From assembly GCA_965226795.1 (NCBI GenBank), contig CBDDDZ010000005.1, positions 608,001 through 672,000 of the forward strand: a stretch of DNA of 64,000 nucleotides. Reading direction: 5' to 3'. The notes below the pieces were generated by a model that saw nothing but the letters and a program-made list of their open reading frames with translations, was not told the DNA's origin and searched no databases. The first letter of the stretch is position 1; each line of letters opens with the position of its first letter. The position numbers and the translations under genes were made by a program. The stretch is from Candidatus Latescibacterota bacterium. GTDB lineage: Bacteria > Latescibacterota > UBA2968 > GCA-2709665. Positions 47,289 through 63,872 of this stretch are shown here, piece by piece.

Positions 47289-47362
47289 CCTTTTGAATAT
47301 ACCTTGCGAATTCCCAGGTGAAAAGGGGAAAAGAACTACTGTGATTAAGGCACGTGCGGCTT

Positions 47363-47657
47363 ACATGGATGGACAGGATGAAAAGGATGGAAACCAGGAA
47401 CTGCAAGACCGGTGTCTGCTGACTAACTATGTTAAAAAAAATACACCCCACGAGCCGTCCCAGACTCACGGGGAATTCTCAAACCAACACCGACAAACAT
47501 GGGTCTACAGGATCTACTGTCAATCAGCCATAAGTCACGCGATTACGTTATTTTATGTGATTGTGCCAACCGCGTGGACAGGGTGGTTAGAGGGTTCCCG
47601 AGATTTTCGCGACTGTCGGGTTTCAGTCTTTATCCTGTCTATCCTGTGCATCCATGT
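47363..47657. repeat. Inverted pair of the 26-nt CAGGAT repeat
   Basis: ACATGGATGGACAGGATGAAAAGGAT (47363-47388) and ATCCTGTCTATCCTGTGCATCCATGT (47632-47657). Confidence 0.85.
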
Positions 47658-47718
47658 AAGATGTGTCGTCGAAAGGATCACCATCGCATAACCCGAAGTC
47701 CATCCGCGTCCAGTACGA

Positions 47719-47919
47719 TCACTCGTGTAGCCGGAACTTGATCTCGGCGATCGAAGCCGTCTCCAGGAATGATTCCAATTCTTTTTTCAGGTTTTCCTGG
47801 GCTTCGAATACAGTTTTTCCCTGGCTCGCGATGTCCAACTCGGGGCATAGAGAGACGTACCCATCGCCGACGCGCTCGATAATTGCCGTCAACTGTCTGG
47901 TCATCACCAACTCCCGCAT
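47719..47919 (-). CDS. hicB: HicB-family antitoxin (short, no adjacent HicA)
   Basis: LTAIIER..DGYVSLCPELDIASQGKT..EA..NL. Confidence 0.75.
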   Translation of the reverse strand: MRELVMTRQLTAIIERVGDGYVSLCPELDIASQGKTVFEAQENLKKELESFLETASIAEIKFRLHE

Positions 47920-47937
47920 TTCCGATTCAAAGAATTA

Positions 47938-48294
47938 ACATGGATGTACAGGATAATACTGTGATTACCCTGATTACACTATGATTGCCATGATTAAGTC
48001 GGATGCGCGGACAGGAAAGACGAGCGAAATCCGACTTGGCATCTGAAACACGGAAAAAAGCCTGTCAGTACCTTAATTAAGGTGAAATGTATGATTACTG
48101 ATTACCGTGATTAAGGCGCGTGGTCGCGGAAGGGCAACAGCGGAAATCCTGTGCATCATGTTAACCACAGTGTCTATCCTGAACATCCATGCCTCCCGCT
48201 TCGCCGCTTTTGCCTCGAATCACAGTCCATCATTATAATCACACGAATCATAGTCGTTTTTGGTCTTCATCCTGTCTATCCTGTGCATCCATGT
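47938..48294. mobile_element. Gene-less MITE/REPIN-like element, copy A
   Basis: Terminal inverted CAGGAT repeats, inner TGATTA/TAATCA arrays; both arms align with 63506-63844. Confidence 0.7.
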
Positions 48295-48295
48295 T

Positions 48296-48907
48296 TCATG
48301 CCTTTTTACGAGGATCGCCTGTCAATTGTTCCCACGCTTTCGTGAAGGACTCAGGCTCGACACCGAGCGCATCGGCCACGCGGTTGATATAGTTGAAATA
48401 GCCGACGATCTGGACCGCGTCATGAATGGCGCGATCGTCGAAGCCGTGCCGGCGCAACCCGTCTATATCCTCCGCCGTTGAAGTCTGGGGATCCAGGCTG
48501 AGTTTTTCCGCGAAGGCACAAAGTGCGCGGTCGGCCGGGGAGAGGCGGGCCCCGCGCCAATCCGTGGCCAACTGATGCACCAGACGGTCGGCCTCGTCGT
48601 CGTCCTCAACGCCGAAATCTCTGGCGACCTCGGCACGGAGGTCGTGGGCGTGGGCGCGTATTCAGTACACGCAATGATTCGCGGCCGAAACCACCACGGC
48701 CAGCATCTCCCGCCGCCCGCGGCTGAGAGGGGAGGGGCCGTGCATCAGAATGCCATAAAAATCCAGCGAAGCCTTCATGACGGGGGGGTTGGGGCTCATG
48801 ATGGACACAATGCCCCAGATACGTCCGGCGCGGGACATCGCGGCGTCGTACAGCTTCTTCAACAGGCCGGTGGCCTTATCTGGCGGGATGACATTGATAT
48901 CGGGCAT
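48296..48907 (-). CDS. AhpD/carboxymuconolactone decarboxylase-like peroxidase-related selenoprotein (UGA at 48662-48664)
   Basis: ORFs 48662..48928 and 48296..48580 are in frame, separated only by TGA in N-H-C-V-Y-U-I-R-A-H; SECIS-like hairpin 17 nt downstream; C-terminal FNYINRVADALGV. Confidence 0.85.
48625..48644 (-). promoter_or_regulatory. Putative bacterial SECIS element
   Basis: CGACCTC-CGTGCC-GAGGTCG hairpin with GT in the loop, starting 17 nt 3' of the UGA. Confidence 0.65.
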
Positions 48908-48972
48908 CACGGACCTCCAACCGAACACGGATCAACAGGGATATTCTAATCATACCAAAAACAAAACGACCT

Positions 48973-48998
48973 ACATGGATGGACAGGATGAACAGGAT
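48973..48998 (+). repeat. 26-nt CAGGAT repeat, left of the SIR2/CBASS cargo
   Basis: ACATGGATGGACAGGATGAACAGGAT; partial second copy at 49108-49124. Confidence 0.85.
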
Positions 48999-49194
48999 AA
49001 AACGGGAAAAACTGGAAAATCCAGTACACCCTGGACCATCACGATGCTAAAGCCGACGATCGGACGTAGTGACGGATTTCGTAGAATCTCCAGAAAAACA
49101 CCAAGATACAAGGATAGACAGGATGGTTGTCCCCGCTCCGGATAAATCCTACTTGGAGATTACGTCCCTTTATTGTTGGACGTAAATCAGCAAC

Positions 49195-49223
49195 TTGACA
49201 TAAGTCCGAAATAATACTATACT
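49195..49223 (+). promoter_or_regulatory. Sigma70 promoter of the SIR2-like gene
   Basis: TTGACA-17 nt-TATACT. Confidence 0.65.
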
Positions 49224-49443
49224 TTTGTGCAGTAATATCCAAACCACGAGGAACACTTGCAAATCTGATGCACTGTGGCACGAAATGGCTAGCGGTGATG
49301 TATCGTAAAGAGAAAACTGGGTTTGCGAATATGCAAATTGCTAATCTGCACTGCAGGCGACGATTGGTCGGTGGCATGTTAATCTAAGTTGCAGATTGCG
49401 CCGGGAAAACCGACGTTTGACGGCAAATACGACGAGGGACACA

Positions 49444-50733
49444 ATGGCGAAAACAGTAATGATATTTGGAGCAGGAGCGTCGATCCCATTTTTCTGCCCG
49501 CCCATTTCGACCGATGGATTGACTGAATTAGTACAGAATGAGACGAAATGGCAAAAGCTCCTGGATAGGTATAACGCAGAGATGCGTCGTGCGAGTCGCC
49601 TTTTGGTTTGTAAGGTCAAATGGGATCCCATATCGCGTTTAAGTCAACGGGCACGTGAAGTGAAAGGGTGTGTAAACTTCGAGGAACTCATTGGGTTTTG
49701 CGACATGTATTCATCATTCGTTTTGGACGAAACATATCTCGCAAACCCTGGAATTGGAAGAGAATCCAAACGTCAACATGATCTCTTAAGGTTTTTCAAC
49801 GTTAGACAGCCATTTCAATGTGGTCAGTACTGGCAATTTGTACCCTTCCTCTTCAGACAGCTGATTGCTGAAGAGATTGGAGAAAGGGATCGCCAATATC
49901 GATCAAATGACTTTTGCGACCTCCTGAGCAAACAATCGAGTTTGCTCTCGGGTCAATTGAAAGATGGGGATCTGTCAGTATTCACTTTTAACTATGATGA
50001 TGTCTTGCCTCAGACCGTGGAAGTTGCAACGATACCTCTGGAAACGGGTTTCTCGTCAGGATACTTTTGTAGTGAGAAATTCCTAAAAGCACCGTCAGTT
50101 CTGGCATTTCTACACGGCCATGCAAAATGGGCTCTGGAAGATTGCGGTATCAGGGAATTTGCATCAATCTCCGACGCCAACACTTGGCGACTTAAGCGCC
50201 TTTTTTCCGCGGAGTCGGCGTCGATGGAATTCGTCGATGAATCTGGTGCCTACGACTTCAATTCATTTTTGTCCACTGGCTTAGACAAGGAGCCATCATT
50301 CAACCGAAACCCCTATTGTGCGTACCACCAGCGTATAGCCCGCGACCTTATGTCTGCAGATGCCCTTATTGTCGCTGGTTACTCGTTCAGTGACCCCCAC
50401 ATTGACAGGTTACTATTAAACTTCCGAAACCTCCGGCCGGAGAATAAGATCCTGGCAATTGACCTGTCGAAACAGGACATTGAGATAACGGAGGAATATA
50501 AGAATTGTGAAAGATTTGTTGGCCGTTTACTCCAAGTATTCGACGTCACAACAATTCCCGTAGAGTCTAGGAATCTAAGCTACAAATACGCTGGCGCATT
50601 GAACTGTACAAACAGAAATGGCTACGGCTTTTTGTATCCTCAAATCTGGATCTACAAAAATGGTTACGGGGAGTTTCTTTCAGAATGGCAGACCGTTCTC
50701 GATAAGTGGCGACGCTCTCACGATCCGTATTAG
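49444..50733 (+). CDS. SIR2-like domain protein (SIR2_2 type), putative anti-phage NADase
   Basis: FGAGAS, TFNYDD, FLHG, AGYSFSDPHI motifs; AT-richer than host genes. Confidence 0.75.
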   Translation: MAKTVMIFGAGASIPFFCPPISTDGLTELVQNETKWQKLLDRYNAEMRRASRLLVCKVKWDPISRLSQRAREVKGCVNFEELIGFCDMYSSFVLDETYLANPGIGRESKRQHDLLRFFNVRQPFQCGQYWQFVPFLFRQLIAEEIGERDRQYRSNDFCDLLSKQSSLLSGQLKDGDLSVFTFNYDDVLPQTVEVATIPLETGFSSGYFCSEKFLKAPSVLAFLHGHAKWALEDCGIREFASISDANTWRLKRLFSAESASMEFVDESGAYDFNSFLSTGLDKEPSFNRNPYCAYHQRIARDLMSADALIVAGYSFSDPHIDRLLLNFRNLRPENKILAIDLSKQDIEITEEYKNCERFVGRLLQVFDVTTIPVESRNLSYKYAGALNCTNRNGYGFLYPQIWIYKNGYGEFLSEWQTVLDKWRRSHDPY

Positions 50734-50888
50734 TACGACCTTTTCCCTGTGACGTTGTTGCCATTGCGATCTTTTTTTAGCGACAGATGTAGGCATGACA
50801 CGGTCGGAAAAAACTGCTCTCAAGCAATACGTCGTCATAGGTCATGCCGACACGGGGACAGCACAAGTCTCGCGGGTTTGAACGGCCG

Positions 50889-51131
50889 CTAGTGCCTCTT
50901 GTCTTTGGGTGGGTTCGGGTCGTTACCGGGCGGTACCGTATCCGAATCACGCCAACGACCATCCCGTCCCTGAATGCGAACCTCTCCACCACCTGAGTTT
51001 CCAACAATCTCCTTTGCCCGTTGCTCGGCTTCGTACTGTGTGTCGTGAACAGAACTGGCTCTTTCCGAGTTTGGACCCTTTACAGCCCAGCCTCTCTGAT
51101 GCTTCGTTACATACCGTTCATTCCTTCCCAT
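50889..51131 (-). CDS. DUF2188 family protein
   Basis: YVT...GWAVK...RAS..HDTQ.EA...A.EI......EVRIQGRDG...DSD....DPNPPKD; AGGAGG RBS. Confidence 0.85.
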   Translation of the reverse strand: MGRNERYVTKHQRGWAVKGPNSERASSVHDTQYEAEQRAKEIVGNSGGGEVRIQGRDGRWRDSDTVPPGNDPNPPKDKRH

Positions 51132-51208
51132 GTTGACCTCCTTGATTTGGTTGGTTCGTGTTTACCGATAATTACCGAACGATCAAAGAGCGTTGGTTCA
51201 TTAAGATT

Positions 51209-53021
51209 GAGCCCACTCCGAAAAGTCGTGTTTACTTAACCAGGAAAAAGTACTAAATTCGAGGTGTCAACAGGTTGCAATGTTTCAGATTGATGTTTGA
51301 TCACAAAGAAGCGAGGGACATATGTTTAGAAGGAGTGCCCCTTCAAGTCAGCCGGATCTGTTTAGCAGCTTCGAGTCGCATTTCAAAGGTCCGAAGCTGG
51401 ATCGGCTAAATGATCCGGCCGCCTGGAATAATCTGTTCTACGAGCACATCACGTCAAAGGTCGATGAGGATATTTTTCGTGTGGTGTTTGACCCTGACAT
51501 AGGCCGTCCCAATGCGCCGATCCGGCATCTGGTGTCGATGATGATCTTGAAGGAGGGCTTTGGGTGGAGCGATGCCCAACTTTTTGAGCAATGTCGGTTC
51601 AACATCCTGGTGATGGGGGCATTGGGGTTGGTGAATCTTACGGATGAAGTGCCTGTCGAGTCCACGTATTATCTGTTCAAGCAGGCTTTGTATGCGTATC
51701 AACTGAAGACCGGTCGCGATCTGGTAGGAGAGACCTTTTTCAGCTTAACAAAGACGCAGGCCAAGGCCTTTGGTGTATTGGGTCAACAAATCCGAATGGA
51801 CAGTAAGTTGATCGGCGCCAACATTGCCTTGTGTTGTCGGTTGCAGTTGGTGGTTTGTTGCTTACAAGGGTTCTGGAGGTCATTGGACAAGGATGAGAAG
51901 GGACGATTATCGGCAACGGATCAGCAGGTTTTGGAGGATCTGATCCAAGGGAAGCCCCATCAGGTTGTCTACCGTCTCACCCCTACTGAAAAAGGCGAGA
52001 AGCTACAGGAATTGGGGCGGTTATTGAGCAGGCTACAAGAGACCTATACCGAGAAAGACAGCGATCGATATGGTCTGATCGTGCGTGTTTTTGAGGACCA
52101 ATATACGGTTTTGTCTTCCCCCGAAGAGGTGCTACCCAAGCCGCCGAAAGCGATCTGTTCATCCTCGTTGCAGTCTGCCCATGATGACGATGCGGCCTTT
52201 CGCAGGAAAGGCGAGAATAAGGTGAAAGGGTATAATGTCAACCTCACCGAGACCTGCGATGAGGATGGCCTCAATTTGATCACGGATGTTGACGTCAAAC
52301 CGGCGACGAGTCCCGACAACGCGTTTGTCCAACCTGCCATTGAGCAGACACAACGCGTGGTGGGTGACGTCTTGGAAGTGTCAATGGATGGGGCCTATAA
52401 TGATCAATCCAACGCCGAGTACGCAAAAGAACAGGACAAGCAATTCTATTACAGTGGCCTGCAAGGAACCCCAGGGCGTTTCAGTTATGAACGCGCAGCA
52501 GACGGTGTCAAGGTCATTGATCAACAAACCGGAGAGGTTCAGCTTGCCCAAGAATACAAACCGGGAAAATACAAAATCATCATCGATGGCAAACCACGAT
52601 ACTTTAAAGAACAACACATCGACAGTTACCTCAATCGCAAACAGATCGAAGCACTCCCTGCCCATATTAGAAACAGACGCAACAATGTCGAGGCCAGCAT
52701 CTTCCAGTTGAGCTATTACACCCAAAATGGCAAGACGCGCTATCGCGGACTGATGCCACACCAACGGTGGGCCTGGTGTCGTGGCCTATGGATCAATCTG
52801 GTTCGGATCAAGAACTACCTCGCTACACCCCTGATGATCCCCGCATAATCGGGGATTTCTTGTGCAAAACCCTGATTGACAACACCCAGACCAACCTGGT
52901 GGCCTCCCTCTACGTTGATGCGCCGCAGGTCGCTGTAAAATCCCGGCACCACGATACATCCCTATACGCATCGCTGTCCACCAACACGAATCCTTCGCGG
53001 CCCCCTTTTCGGAGGCGACTC
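51209..53021 (+). mobile_element. Complete insertion sequence (IS5/IS1182-like DDE)
   Basis: Imperfect 17-bp terminal IRs GAGCCCACTCCGAAAAG / CTTTTCGGAGGCGACTC flanked by a direct repeat AAGATT (51203-51208 and 53022-53027). Confidence 0.88.
51322..52848 (+). CDS. Transposase (DUF772 plus DDE)
   Basis: GRPNAP...GWSD, RMDSKLI, DGAY, RNNVEASI, RYRG. Confidence 0.88.
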   Translation: MFRRSAPSSQPDLFSSFESHFKGPKLDRLNDPAAWNNLFYEHITSKVDEDIFRVVFDPDIGRPNAPIRHLVSMMILKEGFGWSDAQLFEQCRFNILVMGALGLVNLTDEVPVESTYYLFKQALYAYQLKTGRDLVGETFFSLTKTQAKAFGVLGQQIRMDSKLIGANIALCCRLQLVVCCLQGFWRSLDKDEKGRLSATDQQVLEDLIQGKPHQVVYRLTPTEKGEKLQELGRLLSRLQETYTEKDSDRYGLIVRVFEDQYTVLSSPEEVLPKPPKAICSSSLQSAHDDDAAFRRKGENKVKGYNVNLTETCDEDGLNLITDVDVKPATSPDNAFVQPAIEQTQRVVGDVLEVSMDGAYNDQSNAEYAKEQDKQFYYSGLQGTPGRFSYERAADGVKVIDQQTGEVQLAQEYKPGKYKIIIDGKPRYFKEQHIDSYLNRKQIEALPAHIRNRRNNVEASIFQLSYYTQNGKTRYRGLMPHQRWAWCRGLWINLVRIKNYLATPLMIPA

Positions 53022-53307
53022 AAGATTGTATCCAGGATACTCTCGGTGACGCCGCCGTGGAACCCCCGTAGAGAAAGCGATCGGGCGGTGACGAAATACG
53101 ACGCCATCGATTAAATGATGCGGTCAGATGTTCCCTTCTCATCAACTTCCCTATTTGTTACTTGCGATGTTGCATCTTTAGCCTTGGTTCAGGCTATCAA
53201 GGAAGGCCATGCATCTTGGAAGTCAGCGGACATTGGCACATAATTCCCCAAGTCGTCTATTCGGAAAGGAATTCCAGACGCAGAGGTTGGGATTTGCTAC
53301 CGGTACG

Positions 53308-53862
53308 TCATCTCTTTTTACCTAATTCTTCCAATGACATCTCATCGATCTCCTTCGAAATCAGTACCTGTATTCTGAATTTCCTTTTGTACCGCAGGAA
53401 CTTGGCATTCGGTATCTGCGCTGTATTACCCATACAAACAATGTATTTGTCCTGTATATTCTGGATTTTTTCGTTCGCCACATCAATTGAATGCTGATCG
53501 ATACACTTATCAAGAAAATCAGCTTCTCTAATCAAACCTCCCCATATTGCTACCGCCGACTCGTGACGAGCCACCTTCTCCGTCCATTTGAAAACGGTGC
53601 TGTCCAACGCCTGAACAATCGCTGTTAAAAGAGGTAACAGAAAAATGAGTGACAGAATCATATCGCCTGTCCATACACGTCGAAAATGGAATCCGATTAA
53701 CGCAGTGGAAACTAAGGATAACAATACAACGGAGAATTCTTTGCTACTACGAAAATTGTTATATCGTTCCTTTAGCTCTGCGTGACAGAATCGGCACAAT
53801 TCTGCTTTCTTTCTCAGTTTCTTGAGAACATCCCGACTTAAATTCACGCTGTTATTTGACAT
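53308..53862 (-). CDS. Two-TM SLATT-like CBASS effector
   Basis: Two hydrophobic helices flanked by His-containing helices (FCHAEL; ARHESA); overlaps the TRIP13 stop; last gene of the operon. Confidence 0.7.
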   Translation of the reverse strand: MSNNSVNLSRDVLKKLRKKAELCRFCHAELKERYNNFRSSKEFSVVLLSLVSTALIGFHFRRVWTGDMILSLIFLLPLLTAIVQALDSTVFKWTEKVARHESAVAIWGGLIREADFLDKCIDQHSIDVANEKIQNIQDKYIVCMGNTAQIPNAKFLRYKRKFRIQVLISKEIDEMSLEELGKKR

Positions 53863-54757
53863 TTTCGTCGATCCGCGGGCTTGGTTTCACGATTGACACA
53901 GTTTCCTTAAGTAATTTGAAAGTCAATGCACGGTCCGGAAAGGCCTGGGAAAGAGCTTCTGGATAAAATCGTAACCGAAAATCGGAGTATGAATATCCAC
54001 TTTCTCCATACAATCCCCTAGTCGAGGTGAGAGACGCTAATTCGCATAGCTCTTTAGGTGCCAGTTCTATTCCTTGAAGATCCTTCTTCAGCAGTTCTAA
54101 ACTCTCGTCTCTAGTCGGTCGAGAAAACTCCATGTGTAATGCAGCACGTCTAACAACCGCTTGATCGATAACATCTGCTCTATTGGTACACAGAAATACA
54201 ACGGCTCGACCGCCCACTTGGCGAATCTCATCGATTTTTTGTATCAAAGTGTTAACGGCAGCCTTTTCTTCCTGGTGCATTTGTTCTGTGGACCGAAGCG
54301 ATGCAATCGAATCTGCCTCGTCTATCAGCAAAAAGGACAGACGCTTCTTGCCCGCTTGAGTTTTCAGATTTTCGAAGGCCTCCTGGATGAGTTGGCTCAT
54401 CTCTCCATGAAGACCCTTACCTCTCACCCGGGTGCTAAGTTTGAGCAGAAAACCTTCTTTGTGCATCTCTCTCGTCAACCGGTCAGCGGTACACTCGGCC
54501 GTAACAGTTTTTCCGGTCCCAACATCGCCACTGAAAAGAAAAAGCGGATATCTTTGTCGAATAACGTTACATAAGGGAATAATTCGTCCGTAGTACTTCT
54601 TGCTCCATTCATCTATTTGATCGGGCATTAACATTGTGATGAGCTGATTTTTCAGTGTTTCATAACGTCTCTCGAATCCAACAAGTGTTTCAGCGATATC
54701 TTTCAAATCATTTGATGGTAGGTCTCGTACTGTGTCAAACGTATTTTGTGTCATCAT
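53852..54757 (-). CDS. cap6: CBASS TRIP13/Pch2-like AAA+ ATPase
   Basis: GDVGTGKT Walker A, LIDEAD Walker B, VRGKGLHGEM, QMHQEEKAAVNTLIQ; follows HORMA. Confidence 0.9.
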   Translation of the reverse strand: MMTQNTFDTVRDLPSNDLKDIAETLVGFERRYETLKNQLITMLMPDQIDEWSKKYYGRIIPLCNVIRQRYPLFLFSGDVGTGKTVTAECTADRLTREMHKEGFLLKLSTRVRGKGLHGEMSQLIQEAFENLKTQAGKKRLSFLLIDEADSIASLRSTEQMHQEEKAAVNTLIQKIDEIRQVGGRAVVFLCTNRADVIDQAVVRRAALHMEFSRPTRDESLELLKKDLQGIELAPKELCELASLTSTRGLYGESGYSYSDFRLRFYPEALSQAFPDRALTFKLLKETVSIVKPSPRIDENVK

Positions 54758-54767
54758 CTCGCCCCGT

Positions 54768-55250
54768 TTAGTTCACAAATGTATCCCTGCGTAATCCGTA
54801 GGTACTGCTGGAATAGAGTCTGCCGTCGTCGTTTTGCATTTCCGAGTAATCGGTCGACAAGGATGACGGACTCCAACCTAGTTTTAACTTGCCTGAACTC
54901 TTGAGCTCTTCCGCCGTTTGACGATCAGAGTATTCAACTATCACGCATAGGCTGCCGTCCGGTAAGCATGGCCACCGATTGTCTCCCGGCCTTTCGGATT
55001 CCGACACAATGTCTTCTTTCACGGAATATCGATGAACCTTAGTGAGATTTTCCGTAGCGTCATACAATTGTAGGTGGACGCGCGTCAAACACTGTTCTTG
55101 TGCCATTAAACAGACATCATAAGCACACTTCTCTGCATGATCTAATTCCATTGCTTGTGTCCTTACAGCAAGCATTCGCAGGTCTGCCTGAAAGTTTTCG
55201 AAAACTTTACGGATATCTGTTCTGGTATATGTTCGCGTAATGGTGTTCAT
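54768..55250 (-). CDS. cap7: CBASS HORMA-domain protein
   Basis: TRTYTRTDIRKV...F.ADL N-terminus, RPGDNRWP, YSSSTYGL.R C-terminus; between CD-NTase and TRIP13. Confidence 0.85.
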   Translation of the reverse strand: MNTITRTYTRTDIRKVFENFQADLRMLAVRTQAMELDHAEKCAYDVCLMAQEQCLTRVHLQLYDATENLTKVHRYSVKEDIVSESERPGDNRWPCLPDGSLCVIVEYSDRQTAEELKSSGKLKLGWSPSSLSTDYSEMQNDDGRLYSSSTYGLRRDTFVN

Positions 55251-55255
55251 TAGTA

Positions 55256-56206
55256 TTACTCCTCCTTAATATTGAAACTTGGTCCGAAAACTTCCTTCCA
55301 CAACTCCAATGTTTTTCCAGTCTCTTGCACCGCTTGTGCATAGGAAATCGTCTCAAAGCTTTGTTCGGTCATGTCAACAATCTCGTTCCACTCCCTATCA
55401 GACATCCTGATTGTATTGTTTTCGTTGTTGGTTGGATCCGCTATCCACGGGGCATTGCCGTCTCGTGGCCCAATAGCGCCCGAGAAATACACTTTAGCGG
55501 GATTACCGTTACCGAAGAACTCGAAGAAATTGATAATCGCCTGATTTATCGAAGATCCAGATACTACTCGCCCTTCCGCAACCAAATTGGCCACGGCCAA
55601 TTCAATGGAAAAGGAGGAAAGTTCCAATTCTTGGTAGTTTCTCCAGCTTTTTATTATACGGACGATAGAAGTGAAATTGGGACACTTGCCCTTTATTTTT
55701 CTGGCAAAATCCAGTTGCTTGTCAACGCTCGTCTTAAACTCACCTGAATTGAGTTTCTTTCGAGGTTGCCTTCCGTAAGTCGTATTTCCTTTTTCGGGTA
55801 TAAATGGCACTATATCTACCTCAAGGCCAGTGCCTCTGAACACAACACCGATGGTTTTTTGGCCGTCGGTAAAATCGGATCTTTGTTTGTTCGGGTACGC
55901 TCTACATAGGACGTCAATTATACCCTCTCTAAGATCCTCGGCGTTGAACAAAGTATCTTCTTCTACGTTCAGGTAAAAAACCATGTCGATATCGAGTGGA
56001 TAGTCTCCTCGTGGTGCCAAGGCAGTGCCTTTCTTCCACGAGCCCGTCCTTAGCACCTTCGTTACCTTAGTGTTCTCCATTTCTTTTACTGCTTCGAGAA
56101 CGTTATCTTTCAAATTGTCGATTTGGTTGCCGTAAGTGGACTTTTTCTCTTGGGTGAGCTTTATCCGGTTTACGTAATTGTTCAGTTGCTTGTTTGTATA
56201 TTCCAC
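55256..56206 (-). CDS. CBASS cyclic oligonucleotide synthase (CD-NTase, CdnC-like)
   Basis: TGSWKKGTAL...DID, EVDIVP, SSFSIEL, DPTNNENN nucleotidyltransferase motifs; GGAGG RBS with GTG start. Confidence 0.9.
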   Translation of the reverse strand: MEYTNKQLNNYVNRIKLTQEKKSTYGNQIDNLKDNVLEAVKEMENTKVTKVLRTGSWKKGTALAPRGDYPLDIDMVFYLNVEEDTLFNAEDLREGIIDVLCRAYPNKQRSDFTDGQKTIGVVFRGTGLEVDIVPFIPEKGNTTYGRQPRKKLNSGEFKTSVDKQLDFARKIKGKCPNFTSIVRIIKSWRNYQELELSSFSIELAVANLVAEGRVVSGSSINQAIINFFEFFGNGNPAKVYFSGAIGPRDGNAPWIADPTNNENNTIRMSDREWNEIVDMTEQSFETISYAQAVQETGKTLELWKEVFGPSFNIKEE

Positions 56207-56526
56207 GTACCACCTCCTGTTGTATTCTAAAAAGCCCTAAAAGAAAAAAAGCTCGATTGCGACTCTGGATGTTGTCGTAACTCGTTGTTCTAAATTATGT
56301 TACGGTGGTGAATTGATGGGAGCACGGAACCATTAATTTCACTTCTGATTTTCGTAGTTTCCCGGTTGGAAACAAACACATCTTGAGTCACAACTGCAGG
56401 ACAATCTAACGGAAAAACCACCTTATATCAAGGAAAAAAAAGCAATTTTGCTTTGTATTAAAAATCAATAGCTGCGGTTTTGTGTCGCGTTTGAACGATA
56501 TATTGCACAAATTCGCTTTTTATTGA

Positions 56527-56556
56527 TTGACATCTGGGATTCAATATACCTATATT
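56527..56556 (+). promoter_or_regulatory. Promoter of the capH/capP-like pair, probably leaderless
   Basis: TTGACA(56527)-18 nt-TATATT(56551); ATG follows after 7 nt with no RBS. Confidence 0.55.
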
Positions 56557-56563
56557 CTTACGT

Positions 56564-56944
56564 ATGCGACGCCGACCTGAATCAGAGCGACTCTACGAGA
56601 TTGTGGGGCAGAAGGTGGAACGTAGGCGGCGTGAGGCGAAGCTCACGCAAGCCCAGTTGGCGCGGCTATGTGGCCTCGCACGAGGTTCCATTGCCAACAT
56701 AGAAAGTGGCAACCAGCGTCCAACAATTCATACGCTTTGGGACCTCGCAGATGCGCTTGAGGTCGATATGCGCTCACTTCTGCCTTCACCTGAAGAATTT
56801 CTGACGGATGTGGTGAGTACCGAGAGATCGGTTATCACAGGTCGGTTAGAGAAGGCGGCGGGGGGGAGCCGAAACCAGGTAGCTATCTTTATCGCTAACA
56901 GCCGAGCGGAGGTCATGCCAGATGTCTCTAGAGAGGCTGGCTGA
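56564..56944 (+). CDS. XRE-family HTH repressor (CapH-like)
   Basis: LTQAQLA...LARGSIANIESGNQRP; divergent from CBASS. Confidence 0.85.
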   Translation: MRRRPESERLYEIVGQKVERRRREAKLTQAQLARLCGLARGSIANIESGNQRPTIHTLWDLADALEVDMRSLLPSPEEFLTDVVSTERSVITGRLEKAAGGSRNQVAIFIANSRAEVMPDVSREAG

Positions 56945-57425
56945 GGGGCTACTCGCAAATGCAGGCGTCAAATCCGCACCGATTCGGTTGGATCGCGTCG
57001 CCAAACATCTGGGCGTAAGGATCCAGAATGCCGACCTCGGTGAAGATTGTTCGGGGGTGCTCGTTCGCAATGGGAACCGTGCTGTTATTGGCGTCAATGA
57101 GGATCACCATTCGAATCGGCAGCGGTTTAGCATCGCGCACGAAATCGCCCATTTCGTTCTTCACAGCGGGGATACGTACATCGACAAAGGGTATCGTGTG
57201 CAATTCCGCGACCTTGAATCAGGCTCTGGGACGAAACGGGAAGAGATGGAGGCTAATGCGTTTGCTGCGGCATTGCTAATGCCTGCCGCCTGGCTGAGGG
57301 ATGCCTTCCTGCGGCAGCCCTTTGATTTGACCGAAGACGATGACTTGGAGATGCTTGCTGAGAAGTTCGAAGTGAGTACTCAAGCAATGACCTACCGACT
57401 AATGAAACTGCGAATGATCGGCTGA
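56922..57425 (+). CDS. ImmA/IrrE family metallopeptidase (CapP-like)
   Basis: RQRFSIAHEIAH, EMEANAFAAALLMP, FEVS..AM.YRL. Confidence 0.9.
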   Translation: MSLERLAEGLLANAGVKSAPIRLDRVAKHLGVRIQNADLGEDCSGVLVRNGNRAVIGVNEDHHSNRQRFSIAHEIAHFVLHSGDTYIDKGYRVQFRDLESGSGTKREEMEANAFAAALLMPAAWLRDAFLRQPFDLTEDDDLEMLAEKFEVSTQAMTYRLMKLRMIG

Positions 57426-57577
57426 AAACCCGCTTTCTCCCGCACTCTAATTCTTTTTTGTCACCCACGCACCAATTCACCGCCTGACTCTTCCCCGCAA
57501 ACCCTTCTACTGACAGCCATTTTTCCGATACCATTCAGGCATGTTGTTTGACTGGGATCTGGCATCTTCGGTTTTCT

Positions 57578-57603
57578 GTCCTGCTTATTCTGTTTATCCA
57601 TGT
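57578..57603 (-). repeat. 26-nt CAGGAT repeat overlapping the M-S stop codon, right of the SIR2/CBASS cargo
   Basis: Minus strand ACATGGATAAACAGAATAAGCAGGAC; its TAA is the stop at 57594-57596. Confidence 0.75.
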
Positions 57604-60155
57604 TTCCCTTCTCCCCAAACCCTCCCAATGGCCGCCTGAATCCTTTTGTCAAATCGCTGGATCAACGCCCGGTTTGAATCCACGATCGATTGTTCGAGTT
57701 CTATCGCTCTCACGACGGCTTCTTGTGATTGTAGTGGTGGTAGCGGAATTTTGAATTCTGCCAGTGACTTCAAATTTATCCCGGCTTGGCCAATCCACTT
57801 ATTCGCGCGCGCAACGAAAGCACCGTTGCGCCACGCTGAGTGAAGACTAATCGCCAAGAACCCGGCATCACAGCGCTCCCTTGCAGTTCTAATACGGGTC
57901 ATGTGATTAGAATACCCGCCTTGAATTCCTTTCGAAATTACGCACGTCTTACCGACCAGTTCTTTGCTATTCGTATTGTTAAATAGAATGTCGTCAGCCT
58001 TGAGTGAGTAGTGCTCCTTACCTTGATATTTATCCGCGGGCAGGTACTTCATTCCTTCCCAAACAAACTGACCATCCTTTCCTATGTTCATTGGGCGGAC
58101 GTGCGGAACGCCTTCCGAGTCGGTGCTCGTTTTTCCACAGGCAAAGCCAGCTCTGAGCTCTCGTGAGATCTCACCAATCGTCACCATCGGCCAATCGGGG
58201 TCGATGGGAATATGGGGCCGGTAGTTGTCGATCACCGCGCGCGCTCCGTCGATCACCCGCTGGTACCCCTCTATCTCCGCCACAATTTCCCGCTGCACCT
58301 CCAACGGCGGCACAGGGATTTGAATTTGCGCGACCGCGGATGGGTTTGCGCGAGAAAGCGAACCACCAACACCGGTTATTGTCTGCATAAACCGAACGTG
58401 GAAGGTGTCGGAAACGAGTACACGCTGTAGGAATTGGGGTATGATCTCATTGCTGGAGAAAACCAACCATTCCGTGGAGGCAATTTGACGCCTATTGTAG
58501 GGGTCTTCTTTGACAACCCAAGCACGGCGAATGTGTGGAATAATTCGTGACAACAAGACATCTTTAGGATATACGGACTTTTTTGCCGAGCCGATATCAC
58601 GACCTGGAAGTATTTCTGGTCTTCCAGCATCAAAAGCGGGGATACTCCACAACTCGAATATTTCGTCCGGTGTGTTTCGAGGGTCAATGCTCTTAACCTT
58701 TGGTCTCAGAAAACGGCCTACGGGCACGAGATCGTAGACTGTGTTTAAAGTCTCACTCTCCCTGTACCGCTCCCCGCTTAGGTTATACTCCCCACCTGCC
58801 GCGATTTTGGTTTTTTCTACTATGAGGGCCGCGCCTTGCCGAACGAGTTCCGCCAACATTGACGATCTGGGGGCGGGGGCCGCTTTGTCTTTATCCTGTT
58901 TATCCTGTCCATCCATGTTCCCAACGTTGTCCATGTATTCCTTGACGGCATGCTCTGTTCCGGGCAGGTCGTTCTTGTCTATAGGTCTGCGCTGGGCGCC
59001 GAGGTCGAAGCCGTCGTTTTCGACCTTGAAGAATGCGATGCGGTCGGTTCTTTTCGCCAGGGCTCTGTCGAGGATCAGGATGGATGTTTTGACACCCGAG
59101 TAGGGGTTGAACACGCCCGCGGGGAGGGAGACGACCGCGACGAGGTACTCCTCGATCAGCATTTTGCGCAGCTGTTTGTGGGCGTTCTGGCTTTGAAAGA
59201 TGATGCCCTCGGGTACAATAATTCCGGCGCGGCCGGCTGGCGTGAGATGCTCGGCCATGTAGTCCACGAACAACACTTCGCTGCGTTTGGATTTCATGGA
59301 AAAGCGGTTGTGCGGGCGGATGCCGCCCTTCGGCGACATGAACGGCGGATTGGCAAGAATGACGTCGGCGTACTCGTTCCAGCGGTCGTCGCTGGTCAGG
59401 GTATCGTATTCGATGATGTGCGGCTCCGGGAATCCGTGCAGGTACATGTTTACCAGCGACAGGCGGACCATATCCGGCGAGATGTCATAGCCCTGCAAGT
59501 TGGCCGTGAGTCTTTCTCGTTCGTCGGGTGTAAGCGTACTGTTTCCCTCGTCATCGGTATTGGCGGCGATTATATGCTTGTACGACGAAATTAGAAACCC
59601 GGCGGTGCCGCAGGCTGGGTCGAGGACGGTTTCGCTCTTCTTCGGGTCAAGGACCGCAACGATGAAGTCGATGATATGGCGTGGGGTCCGGAACTGCCCG
59701 GCGTCGCCCTGTGATCCGAGGACCGAGAGCAGGTATTCGAAGGCGTCGCCGAGCCGCTCGCTGTGGTCGTAGGTGAACTCGTCGATAATCTTAAGGAAAG
59801 CTCGGAGCGTCTCCGGGTCGCGATAGGGGAGATAGGCGTTGTTGAAGATGTCCCGGAAGAGTACCGGGATACCCGGGTTCTCCGGCATCCTGCCAATGGC
59901 CTCGGCATAGAGATTCAGCATCTCGTGCCCGCCCAGGCCTGAACGCATCAGCTTCGGCCAGCCAAAGCGGGCGAACTCACCGGCAAAGAATTTCCGCGTG
60001 CCACCGAGTTCCTCACTTTCCGCGTCCATGTCGTCCATGAACTTGTAAATCAACGCGATGGTAATCTGTTCGACCTGGCTCTTGGGGTCGGGCACCTTAC
60101 CGACCAGAATATCGCGGGCCGTATCTAACCGCCGTTTTGTCTCGCTATCGAGCAT
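57594..60155 (-). CDS. Type I R-M N6-adenine methyltransferase fused to a specificity subunit (M-S fusion, two TRDs)
   Basis: GQFRTP, DPACGTAGF, NPPF, then two TRD/conserved-region units ending IPVPPLEVQ and IPLPPLQSQ. Confidence 0.9.
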   Translation of the reverse strand: MLDSETKRRLDTARDILVGKVPDPKSQVEQITIALIYKFMDDMDAESEELGGTRKFFAGEFARFGWPKLMRSGLGGHEMLNLYAEAIGRMPENPGIPVLFRDIFNNAYLPYRDPETLRAFLKIIDEFTYDHSERLGDAFEYLLSVLGSQGDAGQFRTPRHIIDFIVAVLDPKKSETVLDPACGTAGFLISSYKHIIAANTDDEGNSTLTPDERERLTANLQGYDISPDMVRLSLVNMYLHGFPEPHIIEYDTLTSDDRWNEYADVILANPPFMSPKGGIRPHNRFSMKSKRSEVLFVDYMAEHLTPAGRAGIIVPEGIIFQSQNAHKQLRKMLIEEYLVAVVSLPAGVFNPYSGVKTSILILDRALAKRTDRIAFFKVENDGFDLGAQRRPIDKNDLPGTEHAVKEYMDNVGNMDGQDKQDKDKAAPAPRSSMLAELVRQGAALIVEKTKIAAGGEYNLSGERYRESETLNTVYDLVPVGRFLRPKVKSIDPRNTPDEIFELWSIPAFDAGRPEILPGRDIGSAKKSVYPKDVLLSRIIPHIRRAWVVKEDPYNRRQIASTEWLVFSSNEIIPQFLQRVLVSDTFHVRFMQTITGVGGSLSRANPSAVAQIQIPVPPLEVQREIVAEIEGYQRVIDGARAVIDNYRPHIPIDPDWPMVTIGEISRELRAGFACGKTSTDSEGVPHVRPMNIGKDGQFVWEGMKYLPADKYQGKEHYSLKADDILFNNTNSKELVGKTCVISKGIQGGYSNHMTRIRTARERCDAGFLAISLHSAWRNGAFVARANKWIGQAGINLKSLAEFKIPLPPLQSQEAVVRAIELEQSIVDSNRALIQRFDKRIQAAIGRVWGEGKHG
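58893..58918 (-). repeat. 26-nt CAGGAT repeat lying in-frame inside the methyltransferase gene
   Basis: Minus strand ACATGGATGGACAGGATAAACAGGAT, translated as (N)MDGQDKQD. Confidence 0.85.
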
Positions 60156-60170
60156 AAGAAACCCCAACTT

Positions 60171-60352
60171 ACATGGATGTACAGGATGCACAGGATAAAG
60201 ATCGATAGTTCACAAACTACCCATTATCGGGGATCTGACGAACCGGGGGCTTTTGCCTCTCTCGAACAGTGAAATACACAGTCGCCTTTTCGGGATACAT
60301 TGCCCGAACCGACTGGTTTTGGCCTTATCCTGCCTATCCTGTGTATCCATGT
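60171..60352. repeat. Inverted pair of the 26-nt CAGGAT repeat
   Basis: 60171-60196 forward; 60327-60352 reverse, directly abutting the GxxExxY stop. Confidence 0.85.
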
Positions 60353-60764
60353 TTAGTCTTGTTTTTTCGGTGTTCGCGTAAACCGCTTAAACTCCAATTT
60401 GGGCTTCCCGAAGTTGATCAGTAGCCCGACCTCGAATCCGGTTGCGTTCAGGTAGTTGATGATCTGGGCTTTCATGTTCGCGCGTAAGCGCCTTGACTGC
60501 TTTGAGTTCGACGATGACTTTGTCTTCGACCAGGATATCCGCGATAAAATCCCCGACGGGTCTGCCGCGAAAACGCACGGCGATCGGTTTTTGCATCTCG
60601 TGTGAAACACCCGCATCCGATAGCGCAACGGTCAGGGCCTTCTCATAGACCGATTCCAGGAACCCGCTTCCAAGTTCATTGATCACCTCCAACGCACAAC
60701 CGATAATCTTGCGGGTCAAACCGCCGTGCAATAGCCCGTGATCCTGTTTATCCTGTGCATCCAT
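60353..60764 (-). CDS. GxxExxY protein (PD-(D/E)xK-like nuclease), one extra A near 60471
   Basis: LGSGFLESVYEKAL, ADILVEDKVIVELK; the alternate frame resumes AQIINYL...GLLINFG to a stop at 60353. Confidence 0.88.
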
Positions 60765-60936
60765 GTTGTCCTACCTTGCGAACTGGTACAGGAGTAACGA
60801 CGCAATCCTGTGGTTATTTCGTTGTTTTTGTTGGCTATAGACCCAGTAACTGGATGATTCCTTTTGTGTTTTTGTGCCTTTTGTGGCCATTTTGTTTCAA
60901 GAAGTCCCTGATCCTGTCTATCCTGTGCATCCATGT
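60741..60936 (-). repeat. Two direct copies of the 26-nt repeat plus a CACAAAA array
   Basis: 60741-60766 (contains the GxxExxY ATG) and 60911-60936; CCACAAAAGGCACAAAAACACAAAAG on the minus strand at about 60861-60886. Confidence 0.8.
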
Positions 60937-60940
60937 AGGC

Positions 60941-63469
60941 TTACGCAGCAAACTGGTTCAAAGGTACGTAGTCTTTCACGTATTCAGGGACGAGTTCACG
61001 GTATTTCTCGGGCACGGCGCGCAGGTCCTGCATTGAGAGCACCGGGTTTGTGGCCAGGCCGGTGTAGTCCCGATTTTCGATGATGTGGCGGATTTGGTCG
61101 CTGGTCACGTACGCCTTGAAGTAGTTCTTGATCGCGGGGATGGCCTCGACCTCTTCCGGTGTGTAGTCGGCCACGAACTTCGCGAATTCCTCCTCCAGCA
61201 TTTCGTCTCTGGATTTGAATCGCGGTATCAGCCCGAATACCTTTTCCAGAATCTCGCGCAAGGTGATGCGGCGGTCCACGGCCGCTGCCCGGCGGAGCTT
61301 TTCCAGGGTATAGTACTCTTCGGGCCGGTCGAAAACCTCATGGTTGACGTAGTCGATGACCCGGTCCCACTGACCGGCCTCGACGGCCGCGGCGATGACT
61401 TCGTCCTTACGCACGGTATCCTCGAATTTCTCGAAGAACATGCGGTCGATCTTCATCCCTTCCGAACCGACGGCCTCGACCTTGATCGTGGACAGGATGT
61501 CCCTGCCCAGGTACTCGTAAGAGCCCGCGTCGGATCCGGGCGATTCCGAGCCCTCTCTTTCGTGGGCATCCCTGTAGACAGGGAGTTCCAACACTTCGTC
61601 GTAGTTGAACTCGGTTTCGAAGTATTCGCAATTGGCGAAGAAATCGAACAGTTTGAACGCCGTCTTATCGGGCTGGTCCACGTCCTCCGCCAGGTTCGGA
61701 TCGTGCAACTGGTCGAGGAAGCTGTGTTTTCGCGTACCGCGTCCCTTGATCTGGATGAAGTCGGTAGGGGAGAAGATGGGGCGGAACAGCACCAGATTCA
61801 GGATATCCGTGCAATCGTACCCGGTTGTCATCATGCCGACCGTCACGCAAACCCGCGCTTTACTCGTCCGATAGGAGGGGAGGAAGTTGCTCCAGCCGAG
61901 CAGGTTATTGTTTGAATAATTGATGGTTAACCGTTGGGCATCCGAAATCTGCGACGTGACCTGCACGGCAAAGTCCGACTGATAACGGCCGGGAAACATG
62001 ACGTCGGCCATCAAGTTGAGGATCTGCGCCAGCCTTGACGCGTGGTTCTGGCTGACGGCAAAGACGATGGACTTGCCGACTTCGCCGCTCACGGGATCCC
62101 GCAGCGCGTTCTCCAGGAAAGTCTTGCAGAAAATCTGGTTGGTCGCGTCGGAAAAGAAGCGCTTTTCGAACTCGCGCTGTTTGTAGGCTTCTTCCTGTTC
62201 TTCTCCCTCATCGTCCGTAAAAGATACGACGAATCCCTGCTCCGAGAGCAACTCGGTCGTCACCTTTGTGCGTGCATCCACGACCGTCGGGTTGATCAGA
62301 TAGCCGTCCTTCACGCCGTCGAGCAGGGAGTACTTGAATGTGGGCTGCCCGCTCTCGCACCCGAAGGTGCGGTAGGTGTCCAGGAGCAACCGGCGTTCGG
62401 CTTCGCGCGGGTCCCGCGTGGCAGGACGCGTTTCGTTGAATCCCTTGAGATAGTCGCGGGGGGTTGCAGTCAGGCCCAGCTTGTACCCCACGAAATAGTC
62501 GAATACGGACCTGGCATTGCCGCCTATCGATCGGTGCGCTTCGTCTGAAATGACGAGGTCGAAGTCGGTGGGGGAGAAGAGGGACTGATACTTGTTGTTG
62601 AAAAGCAGCGACTGGACCGTGGTGACGACGATTTCCGCCGAGCGCCAGTCGTCGCGCCGCTCTTTGTACACCACCGTCTGGAAGTCCGCCGAAAGCAGGG
62701 CGGAGAAGACCTTGCGAGCCTGCTCTTCGAGTTCCAGCCGGTCCACGAGGAACAGAACGCGGGAGGCGTTTCCGGAGCGAAGAAATAACTTGATTACGGC
62801 GGCGGCCACCAGGGTCTTTCCCGTACCCGTGGCCATTTCGAACAGAAACCTGTCTCTGCCGTCTCTCACCGCCCGCTGCAGAGCATGAACGGCCCGGAGT
62901 TGGTAGGGGCGGAGTAAACTCAGTTTATTGGATTTGATGAAGCCGGGGCGCTCGGCTTCGTTTTTCCAGGCGGCTTCCGAAGCATAATTCGGCCGCTGGG
63001 TGAGCACAATGTAGTCCTCGCGGACCCGCTCATCGACCAGGCGCTGCGGGTTGGGCTGGACTTTGTTATAGTCGGTTACGGACTCCGGCGTGGGGAAGGA
63101 TGTGACAAGGTATGGATTACCACGGTCGAGGTCCCAGAAGTAGTGCAGATTTCCGTTGGAGAGGATAACGAAACGGCAGTTCTGCGAGCGGGCGTACTTA
63201 CGCGCCTGTTCCTTTCCCACAAGAGGATTCTTGTCCTCGGACTTGGCCTCCAGAACGACGAGCGGGAAGCCCTTCTCGTTCAGGAGGAGAAAGTCGATAC
63301 GACCCGTCGCGTTCTCGAAGTCGTCGCCCAATGCGTCCAGGTCCTCGCGCTTCAGGACGACCTTCTGTTCGACGCGAATGTTGCCGGGCTTGCCACCTTC
63401 GTCAAAGAAGCGCCACCCTGCCGCCTCGAGCATTTTGTTGATCTTTATTCTCGCCGCTGCTTCATTCAT
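60941..63469 (-). CDS. hsdR: Type I restriction enzyme R subunit (nuclease plus DEAH helicase)
   Basis: RIDFLL...LEAK nuclease motif, MATGTGKT, DEAHRS, GLTATP, MMTTGYD, QIKGRGTR. Confidence 0.9.
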   Translation of the reverse strand: MNEAAARIKINKMLEAAGWRFFDEGGKPGNIRVEQKVVLKREDLDALGDDFENATGRIDFLLLNEKGFPLVVLEAKSEDKNPLVGKEQARKYARSQNCRFVILSNGNLHYFWDLDRGNPYLVTSFPTPESVTDYNKVQPNPQRLVDERVREDYIVLTQRPNYASEAAWKNEAERPGFIKSNKLSLLRPYQLRAVHALQRAVRDGRDRFLFEMATGTGKTLVAAAVIKLFLRSGNASRVLFLVDRLELEEQARKVFSALLSADFQTVVYKERRDDWRSAEIVVTTVQSLLFNNKYQSLFSPTDFDLVISDEAHRSIGGNARSVFDYFVGYKLGLTATPRDYLKGFNETRPATRDPREAERRLLLDTYRTFGCESGQPTFKYSLLDGVKDGYLINPTVVDARTKVTTELLSEQGFVVSFTDDEGEEQEEAYKQREFEKRFFSDATNQIFCKTFLENALRDPVSGEVGKSIVFAVSQNHASRLAQILNLMADVMFPGRYQSDFAVQVTSQISDAQRLTINYSNNNLLGWSNFLPSYRTSKARVCVTVGMMTTGYDCTDILNLVLFRPIFSPTDFIQIKGRGTRKHSFLDQLHDPNLAEDVDQPDKTAFKLFDFFANCEYFETEFNYDEVLELPVYRDAHEREGSESPGSDAGSYEYLGRDILSTIKVEAVGSEGMKIDRMFFEKFEDTVRKDEVIAAAVEAGQWDRVIDYVNHEVFDRPEEYYTLEKLRRAAAVDRRITLREILEKVFGLIPRFKSRDEMLEEEFAKFVADYTPEEVEAIPAIKNYFKAYVTSDQIRHIIENRDYTGLATNPVLSMQDLRAVPEKYRELVPEYVKDYVPLNQFAA

Positions 63470-63505
63470 GGATAAGGCTTCTCTGATGTCGTTTAACAAC
63501 ATTTA

Positions 63506-63844
63506 ACATGGATGGACAGGATGAACAGGATAGACTGTGATTACCGTGATTAGACTATGATTACTGTGATTAAGGCAGATGCGCGGGCAGGAAGACGAGC
63601 GAAATCCGATTCACCACGTGACCCACTGTTAAATGCCTGCGATTAGTTCGATTAAAGTGCAGGAATGGACTGGGTGGGTAGGGTGGGATTTCGGTTCGCG
63701 CGATTGTCAGGTTTTGGTCTTCATCCTAATATCCATAGTTTCCCGCTTCTCCGCCGCTTTTGCCTTTAATCACAGCCCATCATTATAATCACACGAATCA
63801 CAGTCGTTTCTTGCCTTTATCCTGTCTATCCTGTTTATCCATGT
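63506..63844. mobile_element. Gene-less MITE/REPIN-like element, copy B
   Basis: Same architecture and arm sequences as 47938-48294. Confidence 0.7.
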
Positions 63845-63872
63845 TCCCCAGTTTGCGCCCTCTATGGTATTT

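Follow-up and report, generated by a model that had tools for sequence, protein, structure and literature searches.

A 26-nt repeat flanking one clade of GxxExxY genes in Latescibacterota: a candidate recognition site of a Cas4-like nuclease

A 26-nt repeat of the CAGGAT type surrounds a gene of the GxxExxY family (PF13366/TIGR04256) in the genome of Candidatus Latescibacterota bacterium (assembly GCA_965226795.1), within the 64,000-nt stretch of contig CBDDDZ010000005.1 (positions 608,001 to 672,000) that is referred to here as the window. Comparison with related loci revealed that one GxxExxY clade has this repeat as its flanking arm and that other clades carry other repeat words. The GxxExxY protein is predicted to have a PD-(D/E)XK fold of the Cas4/RecB-like kind, with catalytic residues that are intact in the family alignment. 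In our judgment, the chances are about even that the repeat serves as the DNA recognition site of this enzyme, in a selfish cassette that would spread through nuclease cutting and host recombination. The repeat arms and the genes of the cassette region are as follows (the gene names hicB and lptE, as well as the toxin-antitoxin [TA] label used below, are our assumptions):

47363..47388, + strand: repeat arm, antisense, 74 nt upstream of the NUDIX start (consensus match)
47632..47657, - strand: repeat arm, sense, past the hicB-like gene; pairs with the 47363 arm (consensus match and predicted fold)
47938..47954, + strand: two-unit partial arm upstream of the hicB-like gene (sequence)
48176..48192, - strand: degenerate arm (sequence)
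48269..48294, - strand: repeat arm 1 nt past the stop of the peroxidase-related selenoprotein gene (consensus match)
48973..48998, + strand: repeat arm upstream of the selenoprotein start; conserved anchor on the right side of the cargo hotspot
49108..49124, + strand: degenerate arm (sequence)
57578..57603, - strand: degenerate arm overlapping the stop codon of the methyltransferase-specificity (M-S) gene (4 mismatches)
57594..60155, - strand: type I-like fused M-S gene
58893..58918, - strand: arm in frame within an insertion-tolerant M-S loop
60171..60196, + strand: antisense arm that closes the GxxExxY cassette, 15 nt ahead of the M-S start
60327..60352, - strand: third, sense arm directly past the GxxExxY stop; small hairpin with the 60171 arm
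60353..60764, - strand: GxxExxY gene (PF13366/TIGR04256), frameshifted near 60470
60741..60766, - strand: arm providing the GxxExxY start codon
60860..60888, - strand: remnant CACAAAA-type arm
60911..60936, - strand: arm 4 nt past the hsdR stop
60941..63502, - strand: type I-like hsdR
63506..63531, + strand: antisense arm upstream of hsdR
63819..63844, - strand: arm 28 nt past the lptE-like stop; conserved anchor on the left side of the hotspot

Eleven window copies match the consensus with at most 3 mismatches, compared with none in 100 shuffles; the copy at 57578 has 4, and those at 47938, 48176, and 49108, which are partial or degenerate, were recognized by eye in the sequence. A consensus scan found no copies in the first 47 kb of the window. 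Both the copies and their absence from this part had been reported in the original prediction, a first reading of the same DNA, which overlooked or did not emphasize the in-frame position of the 58893 arm in M-S, the start codon supplied to GxxExxY by the 60741 arm, and the frameshift. Its distances to stops and starts were likewise reproduced: sense arms lie 1, 0, and 4 nt past the stops of the selenoprotein, GxxExxY, and hsdR genes, one overlaps the M-S stop, and two follow the lptE-like and hicB-like stops by 28 and 61 nt, respectively, while antisense arms lie 15 to 74 nt upstream of starts (3 or 36 nt for hsdR, depending on the start codon chosen).

The arrangement “sense after stop, antisense before start,” taken in that prediction as nonrandom, cannot fail, because the outer gene shows an intergenic arm its stop if it is on the same strand and its start if it is on the opposite one, so that only the distances are informative. 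Enrichment within 10 nt of stop codons, which was to be tested genome-wide, was not seen outside the window, where none of the 9 stop-facing intergenic arms of the source genome is that close; their distances, which rest on our own gene calls, range from 13 to 244 nt (mostly 13 to 68 nt), and the 0- to 4-nt spacing is confined, within this genome, to the window. In 19 of 22 intergenic arms, the gap on the outer side is smaller than that on the inner side, as would be expected of any insert.

The source genome (5.4 Mb) contains 8, 16, 21, 22, and 24 copies of the repeat when up to 0, 1, 2, 3, and 4 mismatches, respectively, are allowed, with 12 of the 24 located inside the window. The repeat is present in all 14 congeners, at 11 to 98 copies each, and, phylum-wide, in 20 of 168 genomes. 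Among viral contigs, it was found in 3 only (5 loci), as gene-less hairpins or solo arms, and these contigs gave no tblastn match to the window proteins used as queries. A generic periodic-repeat scan was uninformative for this repeat.

Repeat words and GxxExxY clades

A search with an intact congener copy of the GxxExxY protein retrieved 80 loci. CAGGAT arrays are found at the gene ends in 18 of the 21 relatives with at least 60% identity, which come from about ten phyla, compared with 13 of the 59 relatives below 60%. CAGGAT matches are concentrated near the gene (71 in 38 kb versus 14 in 175 kb farther out), and more distant relatives carry other words (CGGAT, CAGAT, CGAAT, CAAAT, and others). 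Within the genus, there are five GxxExxY clades, four with one clear word each and a fifth that is mostly associated with TGATTA; this last word also flanks an intact GxxExxY gene on contig C1 of the source genome. On a quick tree of 103 proteins, built without 2 duplicate loci and without 3 genus hits that were broken or partial, the CAGGAT label requires 10 changes, compared with 32.8 after shuffling, and all 13 labels require 23 changes, compared with 49.7 (none of 200 shuffles was as low). The window gene falls into a branch of 27 rows, 25 of them labeled CAGGAT, that again spans about ten phyla. The tie between the repeat and GxxExxY genes postulated at the outset is thus supported among close relatives and extends to words that track the clades.

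The N-terminal frame of the window gene scored 96.9 bits against PF13366 (cutoff, 22) and 95.1 bits against TIGR04256 (cutoff, 35). The extra base at the frameshift near 60470 is missing from related-strain contigs of two other DNA runs. In an alignment of 66 rows (of the 80 loci, 14 were dropped, 6 because they contain stop codons and 8 because they were duplicates or near-duplicates or had not been selected), residues D76, E86, and Y104 are invariant and K88 and Q100 are nearly so, K88 being retained in at least 90% of the rows. The structure model (predicted local distance difference test score of 87) retains D76, E86, K88, and a QxxxY motif that we take to be of the RecB type, and it had Cas4 SSO0001 and lambda exonuclease as its top Foldseek matches. 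A wide structure comparison returned generic PD-(D/E)XK domains at Z scores of about 8, the best match being with a type IIG restriction enzyme's nuclease domain (Z score, 8.5; root mean square deviation, 2.7; 95 aligned positions), tied with two others. The protein has no sequence relative in the PDB, scans of the Pfam/NCBIfam type gave no GIY-YIG family match for it, and TIGR02436 was not found in the source genome. PDDEXK_3 is listed as having an unknown function and many horizontal transfers (PMC3424549).

Cassette architecture and the cargo hotspot

The cassette has the layout arm-gene-(arm)-spacer-inverted arm and is located between one stop codon and the ribosome-binding site (RBS) of the next gene. 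In the close group of 21 relatives, the 5' sense arm is present in 17 and the 3' antisense arm in 18. According to simple open reading frame (ORF) calls, 37 of 38 co-directional junctions have the GxxExxY gene in sense orientation relative to the operon.

Of 110 hsdR loci, 93 have an M gene in reach (the 17 without an M start were dropped), and the hsdR-hsdM junction is at most 15 nt long in 39 of these 93, mostly in the form stop-RBS-start. A GxxExxY cassette occupies 13 junctions (7 of the CAGGAT type, three of them identical, 3 of the CACAAAA type, and 3 of the CACGAA type), and the remaining ones hold other inserts. Four of the latter (L297, L337, L334, and L276) are presumably four-helix-bundle-like, and some of these four carry short repeat arrays. 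Alleles that are empty or scarred and alleles filled with CACAAAA or CACGAA cassettes occur within one genus at 91 to 95% flank identity. In relatives, the same junction is vacant, holds other GxxExxY/repeat types, or retains gene-less hairpins. The hsdR-M-S junction of the window cassette is occupied in relatives by the CACAAAA-word clade; since the window junction retains a CACAAAA remnant, it was occupied more than once. The orthologous empty sites sought by the original prediction thus exist, here and, with presence/absence polymorphism, at the congener sites described below. CAGGAT cassettes begin 3 to 9 nt past the stop at the hsdR-hsdM junction, and the native RBS lies beyond the closing arm in metagenome and family-level examples.

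The M-S loop around the 58893 arm is 48 amino acids long in 43 of 63 homologs and 62 to 66 amino acids long in the five that contain an arm. Elsewhere (L311, L326, L280, L340, and L282), the same loop harbors in-frame insertions of several unrelated palindromic repeats, of which the one in L311 resembles what we take to be dRS3/NTS. Between hsdR and M-S of congener G013 (L032-L033), seven units, each consisting of the last eight hsdR codons and a CACAAAA-type hairpin, surround a GxxExxY gene of another clade and an insertion sequence (IS). Relative to the first copy, the seven displaced hsdR ends show 8 synonymous and 8 nonsynonymous changes, which are not independent, and the synonymous bias is suggestive only. 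In genome G015 (L346), about 16 tandem units make up an expanded 5' arm, and upstream of the M-S start there is a displaced 3' end of M-S that carries an arm.

The arm past the lptE-like gene and the arm upstream of the selenoprotein gene are conserved across congeners. The lptE-selenoprotein junction that they bound varies from 315 to 21,097 nt in 12 genomes and the selenoprotein-NUDIX junction from 1,011 to 3,416 nt, also in 12 genomes; four neighboring junctions do not exceed 819 nt. The cargo differs between congeners and between near-identical strains and includes restriction-modification (RM) genes, cyclic oligonucleotide-based antiphage signaling system (CBASS) genes, and SIR2-like and TA-like genes. 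In a near-identical strain represented by three DNA runs, the SIR2 and CBASS cargo is without cover and the arm junctions are different. The runs that hold related DNA include sponge metagenomes. In the window, the hotspot and its surroundings comprise the following features:

47958..47996, + strand: nested TGATTA-type array, the word of another GxxExxY clade (sequence; clade link by genus comparison)
48296-48907: AhpD-like gene of the peroxidase-related kind; an in-frame TGA interrupts it, as would fit a selenoprotein
48999..63505: variable cargo between the anchor arms, namely, SIR2-like, DUF2188, IS, CBASS with HORMA and AAA ATPase, helix-turn-helix/IrrE-like, and RM genes
49444-50733: SIR2-like gene
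53308-56206: CBASS operon coding for an NF041116 cyclase, a bacterial HORMA protein, an AAA ATPase, and a 184-amino-acid protein
63532..63576, + strand: nested TGATTA-type array

The TGATTA-type inverted arrays (47958-48255 and 63532-63805) are nested within CAGGAT hairpins. The 184-amino-acid protein of the CBASS operon had no Pfam match, the hicB-like protein had no Pfam or NCBIfam match, and the lptE-like protein had no NCBIfam match.

The first linker is GG in 4 of 48 sense arms and 32 of 43 antisense arms, and such distinct linkers imply that the units have multiplied with their polarity kept. Copies of gene ends are found within units: 12 linkers from 9 genomes contain the lptE end, and the hsdR end is present seven times in a single genome. 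These events are not independent. Perfect tandem duplications of arm units also occur. The selenoprotein gene is duplicated in congeners G008 and G013, with cargo between the copies. The constant 46- to 47-nt linker of back-to-back arms was considered as a possible ruler and rejected, given that its 12 copies in 9 genomes may stem from one event and that arms in other phyla are separated by 14 to 44 nt.

Dispersed copies in IS1380-type elements and a group II intron

Among the dispersed copies, many belong to a discrete element of ∼245 bp, a transposable element of the miniature inverted-repeat type (MITE) with one arm located 26 to 27 nt inside its left end. This end has the same sequence as the terminal repeat of resident IS1380 elements; the right end is imperfect. 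Both ends were found at 9 of 20 IS1380 loci, and the target duplication is 4 bp in these 9. In 17 two-ended MITEs, the flanking 4-mers match at 52 of 68 letters, compared with 36.7 after shuffling, and exactly in 6 of 17 cases, compared with 1.5. Of the 103 congener arms examined (copies of G012 and G013 were sampled in part), 38 have an IS1380-type end, which is found at 3.4% of random positions. Insertion occurred both ways (6 sense, 13 antisense), and 40 of 47 dispersed copies lie in co-directional junctions (P = 0.14 by junction count and 0.003 when length weighted). There are orthologous empty sites for dispersed MITE copies: 48 congener arm sites are syntenic with the source genome, which has the arm at 3 of them and is shorter by at least 100 nt at 38. 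Examples of the MITE family include L066, L075, L081, L082, and L088 in G012 and C4:908553-908810 in the source genome. Four weak IS1380-family loci were examined in G012, which has many MITE copies, and none has this terminal repeat. The solo copies, but not the paired arms, resemble IS1380 elements and their MITEs (PMC9330008) in the terminal repeat at the left end and the 4-bp YTAR-like duplication, and misrecognition of IS1380 ends is described there as well.

These dispersed copies were likely spread by an IS1380 transposase after one arm had been captured in a MITE, and they lend no support to GxxExxY as the mover. The conserved TAR-CC leader found 26 to 30 nt upstream of the arm, considered as a nuclease ruler or a sign of stop-codon targeting, proved to be the IS1380 end plus its target, and the IS of the window itself (DUF772) was dismissed as the MITE source because its ends are unlike those of the MITEs. 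In the window, similarity to the element does not extend beyond the arm sequence, and the arms have no IS1380 ends; its paired arms and gene cassette likewise lack such ends, the one exception being a leader in a congener.

A group II intron of 1,979 nt is inserted at the same arm base in five copies of 99.7 to 100% identity in G008 (L120:320-2298, L034, L108, L109, and L110), with an internally deleted copy in G001 (L344). Three of the five targets have no partner arm within 330 nt downstream, and intron relatives in the source genome enter the IS1380 terminal repeat or a similar word. Thus, two other mobile elements, the IS1380-type element and the group II intron, exploit the arm.

The most probable alternative regards the arms as old gene flanks, at most an autoregulatory operator, which were spread solely by IS1380 MITEs, tandem duplication, and homologous recombination and survived at tolerated sites, so that the nuclease would not be the mover. 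The IS1380-type ends with their 4-bp duplications, the perfect tandem duplications of units, a repeat number that is independent of the presence of the cognate gene, and the acceptance of unrelated palindromes by the arm-holding M-S loop all agree with it. Nevertheless, we consider this explanation unlikely, given that it does not account for the way in which, over about ten phyla, each protein clade has its own repeat word, for three different gene/repeat pairs in the same hsdR-hsdM junction, or for window arms that lack IS1380 ends.

Possible role of the GxxExxY protein and related systems

If the repeat is the recognition site of the GxxExxY enzyme, the latter would bind the 7- to 8-nt cores spaced every 9 nt and cut DNA, probably single stranded, near the arm. 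Repair from sister or incoming DNA could then copy, duplicate, and swap arm-bounded units, which might give rise to REPIN-like gene-less hairpins and a hotspot of cargo exchange. Several observations weigh against this view. Cleavage, binding, and movement by GxxExxY are putative activities deduced from sequence, and the proven recent mobility is of the IS1380 type. The cognate gene was matched in only 3 of 15 genus genomes, in one of them frameshifted, and the repeat is found in all 15, including a genome without a cognate match that has the most copies (98). Gene-carrying cassettes have no clean target duplication that could be defined, even the nearest CAGGAT-type pairs of empty and filled sites are just 81 to 87% alike, and the third sense arm at the stop is clear in just 8 of the 21 close relatives. 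Type I RM junctions also gather genes without repeats, and the hotspot comparison concerns one locus in related genomes. With respect to the tree, kinship by itself clusters repeat labels, 52 of 100 inner branches are open in an alignment of 130 columns, and automatic labeling of the TGATTA clade put CAGGAT on 2 of 9 rows and no label on another 2. The initial suggestion that GxxExxY moves the repeat does not apply to all copies, given the IS1380-ended congener arms and the 12 genus genomes that have the repeat without a cognate match. At a broader scale, all four genomes with a GxxExxY match of at least 75% identity have the repeat, and the three with matches of 56 to 57% have none.

A wider and more tentative generalization is that GxxExxY proteins are minimal, site-specific nucleases of the Cas4-like kind that make up a large family, in which every lineage reads an array of its own with a 9-nt period, and that arm cutting drives integrase-free exchange of RM, CBASS, and TA genes at fixed operon junctions, parasitized by IS1380 MITEs and a group II intron.

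The enzyme could, alternatively, have a domesticated role in the host, restricting or trimming incoming repeat-bearing single-stranded DNA like the Neisseria SsnA or acting as an RM/defense accessory, with the spread of the repeat being secondary. The recurrence of cassettes in hsdR-hsdM junctions, the anchoring of a defense/TA hotspot by the arms, and the tied best structural match to a type IIG restriction nuclease domain are consistent with such a role. Many GxxExxY relatives seem to be encoded in what we take, from their neighbors, to be housekeeping operons; this, together with the patchy distribution of the cognate gene, its frameshift in the window, and the scarcity of the repeat in viral contigs, makes this role improbable, even though the cassette architecture parallels the NTS-ssnA-NTS arrangement (PMC11893778).

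At the RNA level, the arms are paired in the minimum free energy structures predicted for those four window inserts of which both ends were displayed, and 4 of 5 window inserts fold well below shuffles, the hicB-NUDIX insert by only about 1 standard deviation. The linkers of paired arms match at 25 of 72 positions, compared with 25.2 after shuffling, and thus show no covariation; from core to core, the linkers are free to vary, as would be the case if the cores were bound by a protein. Contigs of four RNA runs, which represent a weak test, contained the loop sequence but no excision joint with a side longer than 32 letters; the joints seen at arms have sides of at most 37 letters and probably come from other organisms, DNA carry-over is possible, and regions that the contigs do not cover carry no weight. 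No Rfam match was found in window positions 45,000 to 64,000. Of the loop-out stem envisaged originally, the predicted pairing thus stands, whereas the loop-out itself found no support in these data. A mechanism similar to that of an intervening sequence (IVS), with arms pairing in mRNA to loop out the insert and place the stop next to the RBS, followed by processing by RNase III or GxxExxY, would suit this pairing, the sense orientation of the gene, and the position of the native RBS, which closely follows the closing arm where hsdR-hsdM junctions are filled, but is the least probable of the alternatives, considering also that numerous arms stand alone or lie in frame within a protein and that the closest Foldseek folds are DNases.

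The system is most similar to Ssn/SRM and REPIN-RAYT (RAYT, REP-associated tyrosine transposase) and differs from both in its enzyme family. RAYTs are retained as single copies, whereas GxxExxY genes are patchy and horizontally spread. Similarly to REPIN-RAYT (PMC3116915), there are inverted doublets with a variable spacer, clustered and extragenic, with a candidate enzyme nearby. Such doublets are predicted as hairpins in the window, and many congener copies are solo. In contrast to that system, the arms are not internally palindromic REPs, and the arm-bracketed gene codes for a PD-(D/E)XK protein rather than an HUH (Y1) tyrosine transposase, no genome search for a separate RAYT having been made. 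As in Ssn-NTS/SRM (PMC11893778), the gene of a small single-domain nuclease is flanked by a cognate hairpin repeat, repeat variants track enzyme variants, and many copies are gene-less. However, Ssn is a GIY-YIG enzyme with one short palindrome, whereas the GxxExxY protein, known here from sequence and a model, is a PD-(D/E)XK protein resembling Cas4 and lambda exonuclease, and its arms are tandem cores with a 9-nt period. An ORF between complementary arms inside a host transcript is also characteristic of the 23S rRNA IVS with the S23p ORF (PMC4990558), from which the present cassette differs by its location at mRNA operon junctions, the lack of linker covariation, and a nuclease fold instead of a four-helix bundle. 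Like integron arrays, the hotspot is a fixed site that gathers TA and defense cargo with repeats of the same polarity, and the targeting of the repeat by a group II intron is reminiscent of the IIC-attC introns (PMC3001079). Unlike in integrons, the units do not consist of one gene and one site, and the intron also enters solo arms without a hairpin partner; general scans detected no integrase among the window proteins, with no search aimed at attC sites or integrases. The openly searchable literature yielded no description of the link between the repeat and GxxExxY; subscription papers and supplements, including Ssn tables that could overlap, were outside this scope.

The locus offers matched enzyme-substrate candidates, with intact CAGGAT-clade genes and four clades with other words as specificity controls, as well as empty, filled, and scarred alleles of one junction for comparison, so that an assay of cognate versus noncognate cleavage is feasible. 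If such an assay were positive, PD-(D/E)XK would be the third fold, after HUH and GIY-YIG, in nuclease-repeat partnerships; GxxExxY proteins would be sequence-specific nucleases of ∼130 amino acids and would suggest how some defense hotspots form without an integrase.

A further sequence difference was noticed at the start of the cysK-like gene (window position 46668), where all close-strain RNA runs and three DNA runs have one extra base, possibly reflecting an assembly slip or a strain difference.

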